Positions 51,024 through 57,000 are shown, counted from the stretch's first letter. The stretch: DNA of 64,000 bases from an uncultured Nitrososphaerota archaeon (GCA_963718895.1 CAVRAG010000008.1:1152001-1216000); one strand, 5' to 3'. A program made the numbers and translations. The notes: generated by a model from the sequence alone, not told the origin.

Positions 51024-54000
51024 TTAACGGGCGAACTGCCTAGCCTCCTCGTTCAGCCTCCGGCAGCAGTACTCCCTCACGGTGTATTCTCTGATGCCGA
51101 GAGTCTCGGCAGCCTCCCGCTGAGAGACGGTCTTGGGCGAGATTGCCAGGGACGCCAGATAGACCGATCCTGCTGCGACGGTCCTGGGGTTGAAGCCGTT
51201 GGGCTCCGCTGCTGAGGCTACGAGCTCCTTCGCGCGCTCGAAGAGGGTCGTGAAGTACTCCTTCGGGTCTGCTTCTGACTTCCTCAGCCGCTCGGCAATC
51301 CTCTCGCTGGATTGCAGCCTGCCGATGGCGGCCTTCACGAAGTCATCCTTGCTGGGATGGGGGAGGTGCATCCCGGACTCGAGGCCTAACTTCAGCAGGT
51401 CGGACTTGCGGACCCTGTAGCCCGCGTCGGTGTAGGCCTTCAGGACCTCCCTGTGGCTGACGTGCACGACACCTGCTGCCCTGCAGGCGTAGAGCTGAGG
51501 TAAGAGTGCGCTGCCACGCCCTTCAAATCGGGCAGGAAACACGCACCCTCCCTCCCAAACCCGGCGTGATACTTTCGCATCACCGGGCTTTCACTCCTAC
51601 GTCTTCCGTCCTCTTCTTGTGCATTAGATGGATTGATTTCAGCTACCTTTCTTGAGGCAGCTTACTGTGGCATTTCGCGCACAATGTCTGAAGATTTTCG
51701 ACTCGGTGCACGACCTGCGGGTCGAAGACCATTCCTCTGGGGACACGTTCTATGTGGTGCGCCTGTAGTTTCTCCCGACTGCTGCACTGGGTACACTTCC
51801 ATCCATCCCTCTCAAACGTCAGAAGGCGGTTGGAGAGATAGGTTTCATCATTGTACTCGGGCGCAACCGGGTGGGCGTTGGGCGCATCTATGATTGGGTC
51901 GTCGGTTTTCTCTGAAATGCTGGTTGCCGTGTGGCTCTGGTTGGTGTACGGATTCCTGATTGACCTGTATTTCCAGATGAGTTTATGGTTCATGGAGGTG
52001 TGCATGCTCGTATTGGAGGTCATCCTGAAGAGTTCAACCTTGATGTCGCCCCTCTGAATGACCACCCTTCCGTTCGTGCACACGGTTGACAGGTACTTCC
52101 CGACACTGATGTGGTACTTCCTTCGGTACCACTGCCGAAACAAGCGTTCGGCGAGGAAGTCTCCTGTCCTGAATTGTTGGTAGGCATTTACTGCTTTGTA
52201 GTAGTTGGCCCATCCCTTCAAGACCCTGTTCATCGCCGCAACCTTCGTCGGGGGGTCATCGCTTATCGCAGCTGTCCCTAACATCGCTTGCAGCTTGTTC
52301 TTGAGACGGGAAAGATTTCGCTGTGTTGGTCGTATTCTGACACAACTGTAGTATCCCATGTTCACCCGCCGGATGTGGAAACCGAGGAAGTCGAATCCAT
52401 TCTCCAGCGGAATGAGTCTTGTCTTCTCTGTTGACAGGTTCAGATTGAGTCTCTCCTTAAAGAAGCTCCGTATGCTGTTCATGACTGCGGTGGCTCCCGC
52501 TTGGGTGCCTTTCACACTCAAGATGAAGTCATCCGCATACCTGAACAGTACACAACTGGCCTGTTCCGTTTTCTGTTGTTGTACTCTCTGCGTCCTTGTG
52601 AGCTTGCCCCAGTATTCATCCCAGAACTGGTCAAACTCGTTGAGGTAGATGTTGGCTAGCAATGGCGAAAGGACACCACCTTGCGGGGTTCCTTTCCGGA
52701 CTTGTACCTGAATGCCATCTTCGATGACGGGTGCCTTAAGGAACTGACGAATCAGCCACAGGATGCTAGTGTCTGCTATCCTTTTCTTGACAGCTCGCAT
52801 TAGTATCTCATGGTCGATGTTGTCAAAGCACCCTTCGATGTCTCCTTCTATGACCCATTCGTATCTTCGGACGTTGTCCCCGTACCGATACATCGGCAAT
52901 ACACACTCCAACGTGCTTCTCTCAGGTCGGAAGCCATTCGAGTTTGGCAGGAAGTCGGCCTCGAAGATTGGTTCAAGAACCATCTTCAAGACCATCTGCA
53001 CGACCCGATCTCTTATCGTTGGGATGCCTATTGGGCGCCTCCCTCCGTTAGCCTTCGGAATGTACTTCCTAAGCACCGGAGAGGGGTGATATGTTCGCTG
53101 TTTCAGCTCTGTACGCAGTTCTTCGACAAATCTGGCCCTAGCAGACGGCTCGTGCAGGTCTGCCCCGCACACTCCGTCCACACCTGAGGTCTTCGCGCCA
53201 GCGTTGTCTAGAACCGCTTCGAGAGCCGAGTTGAGCCACTCTCTTTTCCAGAGTAGCGAATGGAGGTTGTAGAATTGCTTGCTTGGTCGTAGTGTTGCGA
53301 TTCTTGCGAGTCCACTCTGGATGCAGAGAATGGCTCTGCCTTCCCTCTTGCGGGGGACTACCGATGATTGCTCATCGGTTTTGTTGTTTGAGCCCATTCT
53401 CTCACCTCCTTTTGTGTTTCGTGGACTGAATCCATCCTTTGCACAGTTCGGACTTCGGATTTCGGACTAGAGTCCTTCCCCACAGGTCGGTAATTGGCCG
53501 ACATTCAGGGTACTATGACTCCTCGGAGCCAACCCAGTCAAATCAGACGCAGCCGTCCTATCCACTCGCCCTTTATCGACGAGAGGCAGACCGGGTTGGG
53601 TCTCACGTTCTGTAAGGAGCACGTCTGTAGACGGATTTAGGCACCCACCAGTATTCGGGAAGATTCCGCCACGCCGGGCGGTTCTCGCCTTCCTAAAGGA
53701 AGGGGATTTGCCATTCCTCTCACTGCACAGGAATGGTAACCCTCCATGTCGTGCGCCCTTCTATCCTAGTGTCTTCGCACGACCGGCCTACTATCTGTTG
53801 TGGGTTCCTTATCGTTGCCATGTCCGTCCTTAGGTCGCCGTCTCGGGAACCTAGGCTGTTCCCTTATCGGCTGTCTATGTCTGGGGCTAGCCCCATGCTG
53901 GGCTCTGCTCAGAGCCCAACATGCCAGACGACTTTCACCTTCGGGAGTCCAAACCTTACGGCTGTGGACGCCCAGCCCTACCTACTGTAGTGTGGGATGA

Positions 54001-57000
54001 TAATTCCGGAACGCTTTCAATTCGTAGTGGTAGCGATGGTTGTGGTGTGTGGCTTCCACTTGTTTGATGCAAAGGCTATTGTGACTGCAGACACAAGGAC
54101 TGCAATTCCTATGTAATTCAGTGTGTAGTTGGCTGGAGCTGTATCCTTGGTTCGAGGCAGGATTGTACTGTGTGGCTGTTACTGATGGATTGATGGCACC
54201 AAAGATGAGAAGTATGGCTCCTATGATGCCTAGTATGAGTGCCAGTCCCAAGATAGTCTGTTTGGTCATCTTGTCGTACCTGCACCTATGGGACTGTTCA
54301 TGTCTTAAGTACTTTTGTCCGAACGGAAATGTTCATAGTGGTCGGTGGTTGACCCTACAGTCCTTCGGGCATTGCTCCTTACAGCGGGCCTCGGTTACTT
54401 TTCAGTAACAGGGGCTTTCGTGACGCGCCAGCGAGTAGGCCGATATCGAGGGGATCGTGGCCTCGTAGGACTCCCTTTGGGGGAGGAGCCTCCTCGCCGT
54501 GATGTCGGCAGCCTGCGCGATGCTCTTGGGGAGGGACAGCCTCTCGGCTATCCTGTTCGTCAGCATCGAGCACGTCGGCATCGGTCCGCCTCGCCCGACG
54601 ATGTTCGGCATCAGCTTCGCCCACCCGAAGGCGGGGCCCTTCAGAGAGGAGGCGCTCTCCGTGTCCGCGACTATGTACGAGCCAAGGGGCTCGCTCTTGC
54701 TCACGGATGGCGCCGTCGACCCGTCCTCGCGCGTGTAGTCCGCCCTGCTCACGACGATCCCGCAGAAGGAGCACGTGAGCTCCGTTCGTTCCTCTCCCGC
54801 GTAGACCTGAGGTAAGAGTGCGCCGCCATGCTCAAAATATCGAGCAGGAAGCACGCACCCTCCCTCCCAAACCCGGCGTGATACTTTCGCATCACCGGGC
54901 TTTCACCCCTACGTCCTCCGTCCTCTTCTTGTGCATTGGATGGATGATTCCGATTCTCCCAGACTTGTCGCTTCTTCGGTATGGGTCGCGAATATTGTTC
55001 TTACTCCGCAAGGTTCTTATGTTACGGATGAGGTTGTTCCGAGTTGAAATGAAGTGGATTCAGCTGGCTCCGGTAGTTGGCTTCGTTTTGACGCTTGCTT
55101 CCTTGTTGTATGTGTGGAATCCCTATACTTGGGGTGTTACAGAGTTAAGCTACGGTTATCCTTTGCCGTGGCTTACCAGCTTTGCCTCTGTAGCGGGTAC
55201 ACATTGGGCAATGAATGTTGTGGGTCTTGCCGTCGACTTCTTGGTCTGGCTTGCTATATCTGCTGCAGGAATTTTCTTGTTGTCCTTGCGCAGTGCAAGA
55301 GAATTGTTGTTCCAGAGGTCAGCTTGGTCTAGGCTGTTTTAGATGGCATTTTGCGCATAGGGTCTGTAAGTTCGCAATCCTGTGCACAACTTCCGGGTCG
55401 AATATTCCTTTGGGCACTGGTTCGACATGATGCGCCTGAAGTTGCTCCCGACTGCCGCACCGAGTACACCTCCATCCATCCCTCTCAAACGCTAGTAGGC
55501 GGTTGGAGGAATAGATTTCACCGTCGTACGCAGGTGCAAGCGGTTGGATGTTGGGCGCATCTATGATTGGGTCGTCGTTTTCCTCTGGAATGCCGGTTGC
55601 CTTATGATCCTGGCTGATGTATGGATTCCTGATTGACCTGTATCGCCAGAGGAGCTCATGATTCCTTATGGTGTGCGTGCTCGTGCTGGATGCCATCCGG
55701 AAAAGTTCGGCTTTTACACCCCGCCTCTGGACGACCACTTTGCCATTACTGAGGACTTGCGCTAGGAACTTCCGGACGCTTACCTTGTACTTGCGACAGT
55801 ACCACTTGCAGAACAGGCGTTCGGCCAGAAAGTCCCCGGTTCTGAATTGCTGGTACGAATTGACTGACGTGTAGTAGTTGGCCCATCCCCTCAAGACTCT
55901 GTTCAGGGCTGCAATTTTCATGTGCGGCTCGTCGCGCGACGCGGTGGGCCCGAGCATGGATTGCAATTTGTTCCTGAGGCGGTATAGGTTCCTCTGTGTA
56001 GGTCGTATTCTGACGCACTCGCCGTAGTCTAGGTGCACCCGCTGGATGTGGAATCCAAGAAAATTGAATCCCTCTTCCAGACGGACGACCCTGGTCTTGT
56101 CTGTGGATAGGTCCAGCCTGAGCTTGCTCTTGAAGAAGCTCCTGATGCTGTCCATGACGGCGTTGACCCCCTCTTCAGTGCCTCTCGCACTTAGGATGAA
56201 GTCATCAGCGTACCTGAACAGCACACAGTTGGCCTGTCCGTGTCTCTGGCGTTTCTTTCTTTGATCTGCTGTGAGTCTGCCCCAGTTTTCATACCAGAAC
56301 TGGTCAAACTTGTTGAGGTAGATGTTGGCGAGCAGTGGTGAAAGAACACCTCCTTGTGGTGTTCCCTTGCGGGTTTTTGTCCGGATGCCTTCGTCGATGA
56401 CGGGTGCCTTGAGGAACCGACGAATCAGCCACAGGATACTGTTGTCGGCTATCCTCTTCTGGACAGCTTCCATCAGGATTCCGTGGTCGATGTTGTCGAA
56501 GCACCCTTCGATGTCTCCCTCGATGACCCATTGGTAGAGGTTGTGGCTGTTCCCGTAGCGGTACATTGGCAATACGCACTCCAGCGTGCTTCGCTCAGGT
56601 CTGAAGCCGTTGGAATTGGGCAGGAAGTCGGCCTCGAAGATTGGTTCGAGAACCATCTTCAAGACCATCTGCACCACCCTATCCCTTATCGTTGGAATGC
56701 CTATTGGCCGCTCCTTCCCGTTGGCTTTTGGAATATACTTCCTGAGCACTGGGGAGGGATGGTAGGTTCGTTGCTTCAGCTCCGTCCGCAGTTCCTCGAC
56801 GAATCTGGCCCTAGCAGACGGTTCGTGCAGGTCAGCCCCGCACACTCCGTCCACGCCTGAGGTCTTCGCGCCAGCGTTGTCTAAGACTGCTTCAAGAGCT
56901 GTTTGTAGCCACTCTCTTCTCCAGAGTAGTGAGTGTAGGTTGTGGAATTGCTTGTCTTTCCTTCTTGTTGCTGATATGGCGAGTCCACTCTGGATATGGA

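Follow-up and report, generated by a model that had tools for sequence, protein, structure and literature searches.

A group II intron of an uncultured Nitrososphaerota archaeon with a passenger gene region in a domain I hairpin

Two group II introns in a TFIIB-like gene

We analyzed a stretch of 64,000 nucleotides (nt) from an uncultured Nitrososphaerota archaeon (GCA_963718895.1, CAVRAG010000008.1:1152001-1216000), which is referred to below as the window and in which positions are counted from the first nucleotide. The window comes from a draft genome of 3.1 Mb (GC content 59.7%, completeness 80.5%, contamination 5.4%). It contains one TFIIB-like gene that is interrupted by two group II introns, A (54428-51495) and B (57742-54807), both on the minus strand and ~80% identical to each other in an alignment. 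Intron A differs from intron B in a small hairpin of domain I, where it holds a 366-nt insert with a promoter-like motif and a small membrane-protein gene. The main features of the locus are as follows.

51495-54428, minus strand: intron A (mobile group II intron, 2934 nt), beginning with GCGCGTCACG and ending with CCTCAG (Rfam domain V/VI, empty alleles, contig of run X3)
51643-53397, minus strand: intact gene of intron A for a reverse transcriptase (RT)/maturase/HNH protein of 584 amino acids (aa) (open reading frame list and Pfam)
54429-54806, minus strand: exon 2 of the TFIIB-like host gene, between the introns (open reading frames, alleles, Pfam on L111)
54807-57742, minus strand: intron B, a comparison copy without an insert at the domain I loop (Rfam, alignment with intron A, alleles without intron B)

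Related loci (designated by L numbers) were derived from uncultured Nitrososphaerota of soil and peat. The identity of the host gene was established with an uninterrupted relative (L111), in which Pfam recognized the TFIIB repeat (2.4e-7) and, with a weaker score, the TFIIB zinc ribbon. Intron-less alleles fixed the limits of both introns. In L111 and L120, which lack intron A, exon 2 is contiguous with exon 3 (AYSLLHACRAAG), and a DNA contig of run X3 joins position 51469 to 54430, corresponding to another intron-A-less allele. Similarly, in L110 and L116, which lack intron B, CPECREGL is followed without interruption by VYAGEE... Presence and absence of the introns in the host gene were precise, and the reading frame was restored in the empty alleles. 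The host gene (51024-57900, minus strand) is a hot spot for introns and has three distinct insertion sites: site B in the zinc ribbon, site A in the first cyclin repeat and a third site further downstream, which was filled in L111 and L120 (both without intron A). An RNA contig containing exon 2 and an exon-3-like sequence (~92% identical to the window) was rejected as a proof of splicing, as it could represent an intron-less allele.

The Rfam model RF00029 matched over its full length at 51494-51592 and 54807-54904 (minus strand), with 57.3 and 57.0 bits at a gathering score of 40. In both introns, domain V/VI is preceded by an intact 584-aa open reading frame (ORF) with RVT_1, GIIM and HNH domains (1.3e-38, 2.6e-9 and 1.7e-4 in intron A), all of which scored above the Pfam cut-off. 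Introns A and B, as well as the identical copies in genome G007, begin with GCGCG and end with CCTCAG (54424-54428 and 51495-51500 in intron A; 57738-57742 and 54807-54812 in intron B). Group II introns usually have the termini GUGYG...AY, and variants occur in the family; the GCGCG...CAG termini deviate from this consensus and were not treated as grounds for exclusion. The consensus fold of the first 300 nt of the intron contained 70 pairs, 21 of which showed compensatory change. The Rfam models of D1-D4 gave a single sub-threshold match on intron B, located elsewhere (RF01998, 18.4 bits vs. 35). In domain V/VI, encoded protein and empty alleles the element agrees with a mobile group II intron, while its termini deviate, and we class it as a probable retromobile intron belonging to Nitrososphaerota from soil and peat.

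The domain I insert and its passenger gene

At the site of interest and within the insert, the following features were recognized.

57666-57677, minus strand: hairpin CTGC-GAAA-GCAG of intron B, homologous in position to the insert (alignment, covariation)
54355-54361, minus strand: ACTGTAG, 5' arm of the insert-bearing hairpin of intron A, which replaces the CUGC arm of insert-free relatives
53982-53988, minus strand: CTACAGT, 3' arm of the same hairpin, where homology to other alleles resumes
53989-54354, minus strand: loop insert (passenger region) of 366 nt (alignment of introns A and B, composition, contigs of run X1)
54304-54325, minus strand: promoter-like motif CGTTCGGACAAAAGTACTTAAG, composed of an octamer (GTTCGGAC) and a TATA-like box, which recurs before free-standing homologues
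54135-54269, minus strand: N-terminal half of the passenger gene, with ATG at 54269 and the first transmembrane (TM) segment (translation)
54017-54145, minus strand: C-terminal half of the passenger gene in another frame, with the second TM segment and the stop codon TGA at 54019-54017 (translation)
54317-54351, minus strand: 5' copy of an imperfect direct repeat, duplicating the last codons of the gene, with CGTTCGGAC (local score against shuffles)
54005-54042, minus strand: 3' copy of the direct repeat, with the real gene end, its stop codon and CGTTCCGGA, and including the second GAACG (local score against shuffles)

About 65 nt into intron B lies the two-part hairpin GCCC-GAAGG-GCUGC-GAAA-GCAGC-UGGUA-GGGC, whose GAAA-capped tip was read at 57677-57666. 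This hairpin was 97.5% paired in nine insert-free relatives, with compensatory changes in 4 of 9 pairs, whereas slid controls gave 15-52%. In intron A, 366 nt flanked by ACTGTAG (54361-54355) and CTACAGT (53988-53982) stand in place of the tetraloop and its closing pair. Thus, the preliminary description of this DNA, which had reported a GAAA hairpin in intron B and a stem enclosing ~365 nt in intron A, agreed with the sequence on both counts. By analogy with Ll.LtrB, the hairpin may be the one that carries the Ic1 (theta) tetraloop. The insert had a GC content of 46%, lower than that of the intron (52.5%) and of the whole genome (59.7%). Besides, DNA contigs of run X1 crossed both insert junctions (53917-54119 with no differences and 54257-54526 with 5 differences), which shows that the insert is no assembly artefact. 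The draft status of the genome, with the completeness and contamination given above, would allow a mis-assembly or binning error to have joined the insert to the intron; however, in addition to these independent contigs, L116 showed the same architecture in another data set and inserts occupied the same position in ten other loci, and such an error has next to no probability. We conclude that these 366 nt form a genuine passenger region, located at the end of a small hairpin in the 5' part of domain I that normally has a GNRA cap.

On the minus strand of the insert, GTTCGGAC at 54324-54317 is followed by AAAAGTACTTAAG, confirming the octamer-TATA arrangement noted earlier. The gene with two TM segments (2-TM gene) that had been placed behind it was found in part: both segments are present, but they do not belong to an intact ORF, the first being in the frame of the ATG at 54269 and the second (54145-54020) in a different one. 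Relative to the intact 80-aa gene of L116, that of intron A has 3 and 7 extra nt between the two TM segments. Being frameshifted, the gene is decaying in this copy. Its N-terminal half showed 74% identity over 31 aa to the L116 protein and 53% over 36 aa to a paralogue on its own contig (C8, ~626 kb), which the insert also matched at the nucleotide level (66% identity over 272 nt). Further free-standing members of the 2-TM family were found in the same genome (C10, ~29 kb) and in related genomes (L009, L014 and L010). Homology of the insert with all of these starts at (C/T/G)GTTCGGACAAA and stops with the stop codon, and no intron sequence was found beside the free-standing 2-TM homologues. 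Judged by this homology, the insert is a single promoter-plus-gene unit, and other members of its family occur outside introns. In L009 and L014, a second gene for a small membrane protein begins within the free-standing 2-TM gene (TGAATGAGC...), and the 2-TM family may normally be part of a small operon. A search with the 2-TM protein among 5.8 billion proteins matched only 3 clusters. A Pfam search with six passenger proteins and the domain IV ORF of intron B yielded nothing at the cut-off, the best matches being a holin-like family (0.02) and CARDB (0.087), and no coverage of the passenger in the window itself was obtained from the RNA runs X15 and X16.

Two other identities of the insert were considered and rejected. 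For a twintron, no RNA family match was present within 53989-54354 at gathering thresholds, and the insert is homologous to a promoter-plus-gene unit. For an insertion sequence or a miniature inverted-repeat transposable element, the ribozyme stem is the sole terminal inverted repeat, a transposase ORF is lacking, and the other genomic copy is a 66%-identical gene paralogue rather than a copy of an element.

Genome-wide, the octamer occurred in 181 copies, at least 33 of which had a strict TATA-like box; their distribution is clustered, and one of the few regions concerned overlaps the window. The motif GTTCGGACA-(A/T)AAC-TATTAATCA lies upstream of small genes, in the window at 6869, 17652, 17712, 29749, 37475 and 60437, and its clusters are located at 225-389 kb of C4, at 1.16-1.22 and 1.51-1.53 Mb of C8, on C10 and at 464-468 kb of C7. 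The motif may be a promoter specific to such islands and could be recognized by the TFIIB-like factor of the island itself.

Variable loops, turnover and mobility in related introns

We examined 24 loci from 158 related genomes and two public collections. The loop was filled by an insert in 11 of these and consisted of only 4-5 nt in 11 others (10 with GNRA and one with a pentaloop); one locus had a 52-nt hairpin and one was unclear.

Insert of 0.37-0.76 kb: intron A of the window, L116, L110, L002, L003, L011, L019, L027, L020, L008 and L111
Loop of 4-5 nt on CUGC/GCAG: intron B of the window, L004, L006, L007, L017, L028, L021, L022, L112 and L120 (GNRA); L115 (pentaloop)
52-nt hairpin: L121
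Loop state unclear: L015

Comparison of the passengers with BLASTP gave five unrelated protein families.

Family 1: intron A and L116
Family 2: L003 and L011 with L019, L027 and L020 (~32% identity between the subgroups)
Family 3: L002
Family 4: L008 and L111
Family 5: L110

All passengers are in sense orientation and have an N-terminal TM segment, and the scanned ORFs encode 79-214 aa. For three of the five families, free-standing homologues were found in the genome to which the window belongs. The promoter motif is present in three families, with at most one mismatch except in family 4 (at most two). Upstream of it, a small, conserved hairpin (GTCCTA-N5-TAGGAC) was observed in the loops of L003, L019, L027 and L002; it is degenerate in L116 and lost in intron A. 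In addition, the interval between the RT stop codon and domain V looks like a second variable slot. Intron B carries an insert of ~370 nt there (54905-55318), with a 97-aa membrane-like ORF on the opposite strand (55049-55342, plus strand). In relatives the distance was 57-61 nt in 6 of 11 loci and 284, 299, 421 and 794 nt in four; the value for the eleventh, L034 (1067 nt), is unreliable as its RT frame is broken.

One explanation of these loops places the weight on the motif itself: an internal promoter would drive transcription of the ribozyme and RT gene located downstream, without dependence on the host gene, and the small ORFs would be incidental. In every loop that has the motif it is directed towards the RT gene, and in intron A the motif is intact while the ORF is broken. 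Besides, an inward internal promoter upstream of ltrA in Ll.LtrB is described as supporting splicing (PMC3001079). However, the passenger ORFs are mostly intact and their families include free-standing members, two families have no clear motif, and half of the related introns have no insert. A role as internal promoter alone thus appears quite unlikely.

Mobility with cargo was evident in one complete genome, in which an intron with a 757-nt loop occurs in two copies (L031 and L032) that are 100% identical over 3315 nt, from GCGCG to CCTCAGG, and lie in unrelated flanks. The presence of identical loaded copies at unrelated sites shows that loaded introns move. Pieces of intron with a family-3 passenger were also found in unrelated flanks in three genomes, including contig C4 of the window's own genome, and decaying loaded introns can leave their passenger behind. 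L027 (C4, ~245.9-246.9 kb) consists of part of domain I and a 170-aa passenger with the promoter motif, the remainder of the intron being gone. Similar relics lie in unrelated flanks of two other genomes (L019 and L020), and L019 keeps domains V/VI ~310 nt downstream.

The passengers also differ between close relatives. L110, at the same site of the same host gene, was 98.0% identical to intron A over 1.6 kb downstream of the loop and has a different passenger. L116 was 95.5% identical to intron A downstream of the loop, but their passengers, although of the same family, were only 76.1% identical; the passenger of intron A was as close to free-standing genes of other species (71-76% identity) as to that of L116. 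To judge by these identities, passengers turn over quickly. With filled loops in 11 loci, five passenger families, the L110 swap and the L031/L032 copies, the earlier suggestion that the intron carries exchangeable passengers was borne out.

Intron nt 1-67 showed a different pattern: intron A was 66-77% identical to L110 and L116 over this segment, and L116 was 90% identical to L110. Homology between intron A and L110 resumes from 53990. Contigs that match intron A from 53868 or 53850 to 53989/53990 continue into an L110-type flank (X15, an RNA library) or into another sequence (X3, a DNA library). Homology between alleles therefore breaks at the inner edge of the stem (53989/53990) and not at GAACG, and the break points fall in near-invariant ribozyme segments beside the stem. 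The mosaic identities together with these break points suggest that the unit of exchange is the whole loop, sometimes with the 5' end of the intron. In a tree of 10 rows, intron A was joined with full support to L034 (same locus as L002), whose passenger differs. The short fragments L008, L019, L020, L027, L015, L017 and L028 were left out of this tree, in which the order of the main lineages is open; a first tree was discarded because it included truncated loci with non-homologous downstream sequence. The RT gene of L034 appears broken, its longest frame upstream of domain V having 270 aa, although tblastn matches extend over residues 1-584.

A different unit had been proposed in the preliminary description, namely a 312-base-pair mobile cassette bounded by GAACG (which would then be a target-site duplication or recombination site) and inserted into a pre-existing ATGA..TTCC-GGAAC-GGAA..TCAT hairpin that its removal restores. 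GAACG does occur on the plus strand at 54009 and 54321, 312 nt apart, and the unit coincides with the segment, reaching from promoter to stop codon, over which homology with free-standing genes extends. When one 312-nt unit was removed, the remaining 68 nt folded at -17.7 kcal/mol, compared with -8.7 +/- 2.4 for shuffled interiors (3 of 1000 as good, i.e., better than 997). The 5-nt repeat alone is within chance, since some 5-mer was common to both loop ends in 1861 of 2000 shuffles; the true repeat is longer, imperfect and significant, ~35 nt (54351-54317) matching ~38 nt (54042-54005) with a local score of 27 (14.1 +/- 2.8 in shuffles, reached by 0 of 500). However, the 5' repeat copy duplicates the passenger's own last codons and is therefore not a duplicated intron target site. 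In L116, which has a passenger of the same family, neither such a repeat nor such a hairpin is present: the motif starts with ATATTCGGAC rather than CGTTC, and the 3' flank forms a different hairpin, GAACGCAT-CGGA-ATGCGTTC, of which GAACG and CGTTC are the two arms. No flanking repeat was detected in L116 and five free-standing family members, where 19-98% of shuffles reached the scores between upstream and downstream flanks. Boundaries of the other passengers are unrelated to GAACG, and allele break points lie at the stem. No A-type allele with the restored hairpin was found either, the insert-free relatives having a plain 4-5-nt loop. Of the original proposal, the repeat pair and the good fold of the remainder thus stand, but GAACG does not bound the unit and the split hairpin is unsupported. 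We consider a discrete cassette of this kind very unlikely.

Two related candidates were also rejected. An integron-like, site-specific cassette was dismissed as GAACG flanks the insert of intron A only, the boundaries in L116, L110, L111, L003, L019 and L002 being unrelated. A joint from 53982 to 54358 in run X1, with 11 other letters between, had suggested a cassette-free allele of intron A; its loose end is the first hairpin of intron B, and it was assigned to intron B.

The complementary flanks of the insert in intron A fit better, according to predicted folds, as one clamp helix that closes the base of the passenger than as a split hairpin. In minimum-energy folds, the first and last 90 nt of the loop paired with each other in 8 of 9 loaded loops, including that of intron A, and the sequences differed in each; for example, the helix is GGAACAUC/GAUGUUCC in L110 and UCAGGAA/UUCCUGA in L111. 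The ~35-nt terminal repeat is specific to intron A and looks like a local duplication followed by a deletion, or like the trace of a donor longer than one unit.

Group II intron RTs are known to switch templates, and passengers could have been captured at the RNA level: during retrohoming, the RT would switch at the stable domain I stem onto a read-through, tandem or circular RNA and then back, leaving a sense copy of sometimes more than one unit. This would account for the sense orientation in all passenger families, for break points at the stem base and for the terminal redundancy of intron A, as if more than one unit length had been copied. On the other hand, most passengers include the promoter motif, which is absent from ordinary mRNA, and selection against antisense transcription through the ribozyme would equally give sense orientation. 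No tandem or circular donor was present in the loci examined, and the mosaic 5' 67 nt of the intron point to recombination of DNA. We therefore regard RNA-level capture as unlikely.

A probable cargo loop and its relation to known systems

Taken together, these data make it likely that this intron family carries exchangeable promoter-plus-gene passengers in the domain I loop as in a cargo bay, that loaded introns are mobile, and that the copy in intron A is decaying. Passengers would be looped out on the clamp helix so that the ribozyme core could still fold, and the loaded intron would copy itself to new sites. Homologous DNA recombination through the near-invariant segments on either side of the loop would then swap whole loops between co-resident or incoming introns, and the common promoter motif may permit exchange with free-standing genes.

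Several points weigh against this model. A benefit from the passengers is presumed, but that of intron A is a pseudogene, and useful cargo is thus not required in this copy. The promoter function is suggested solely by the recurrence of the motif upstream of genes, and in L110 the motif is only degenerate and in L002 not recognizable. Similarly, the proposed recombination is deduced from mosaic identity patterns, and intron A itself is presumed to splice and move with its own insert. Loss of the GNRA loop in intron A could impair a tertiary contact. The clamp helices are minimum-energy predictions of 380-760-nt RNAs without shuffle controls, and L008 had no clamp in its predicted fold (1 of 9 loops folded). 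Finally, a single clade of loaded introns was neither shown nor rejected (p-AU 0.33).

A stronger version, which we offer only as a speculative possibility, is that the lineage acts as a natural retro-vector with a domain I hairpin as its dedicated cargo bay. Promoter-plus-gene units would be loaded and swapped by an active process at the stem, such as RT template switching onto read-through or circular RNAs, which would leave the terminal redundancy of intron A; the introns would spread genes for small membrane and surface proteins among genomic sites and among genomes of Nitrososphaerota in soil, and their decay would leave free-standing genes. If true, gene cassettes in archaea would be mobilized by a route that has not been recognized before.

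In the usual view, group II introns carry only their own RT, and cargo delivery is an engineering trick. The introns described here resemble retromobile group II introns with an RT/maturase/HNH protein encoded in domain IV, such as Ll.LtrB and those of Methanosarcina, in domain V/VI, the RT-maturase-HNH ORF, the intron-less alleles and the copies at different sites; they differ in that a domain I loop houses a further, unrelated gene equipped with a promoter motif, in the GCGCG...CAG termini and in the Nitrososphaerota host. Organellar introns can also have non-RT ORFs in peripheral loops, for example LAGLIDADG genes in fungal group II introns and rps3 in a group I intron. The likeness lies in the location of the ORF in a dispensable peripheral loop of the ribozyme. 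However, the organellar ORFs are homing endonucleases or one fixed housekeeping gene, whereas here several unrelated, exchangeable genes for small membrane-anchored proteins occupy the loop in an archaeal chromosome.

Engineered targetrons are reported to carry cargo genes in domain IV (PMC3898094, PMC2518211). Both systems have a foreign gene looped out of the ribozyme and a loaded intron that still integrates, but here the arrangement is natural, lies in domain I instead of domain IVb, and involves passengers that vary between close relatives. In group IIC-attC introns of integrons, which likewise are an intron lineage tied to gene cassettes, promoters have been described within domains I and II (PMC3001079). 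Those introns are inserted beside cassettes at attC and their promoters face outward; in contrast, in the present family the gene is inside the ribozyme, the motif faces inward, and no attC-like site or integrase is involved. The word 'cargo' was absent from the accessible portion of a 2024 preprint surveying archaeal group II introns, and a literature search whose scope excluded subscription journals and supplementary files returned no report of natural domain I loop passengers.

The present loci indicate that, in natural archaeal introns, a single peripheral hairpin of domain I can accommodate inserts of 0.4-0.8 kb, which are complete small genes and in most cases include a promoter motif. 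That passengers differ between 98%-identical introns while loaded introns still transpose suggests an added route of gene movement in archaea. Besides, the hairpin represents a natural insertion site that leaves the intron mobile and could guide targetron design.

Elsewhere in the window, Rfam reported a tRNA of 141 nt at 40303-40443 (plus strand, 53.4 bits), and ARAGORN found no tRNA in the window; the tRNA at 40303-40443 probably contains an intron.

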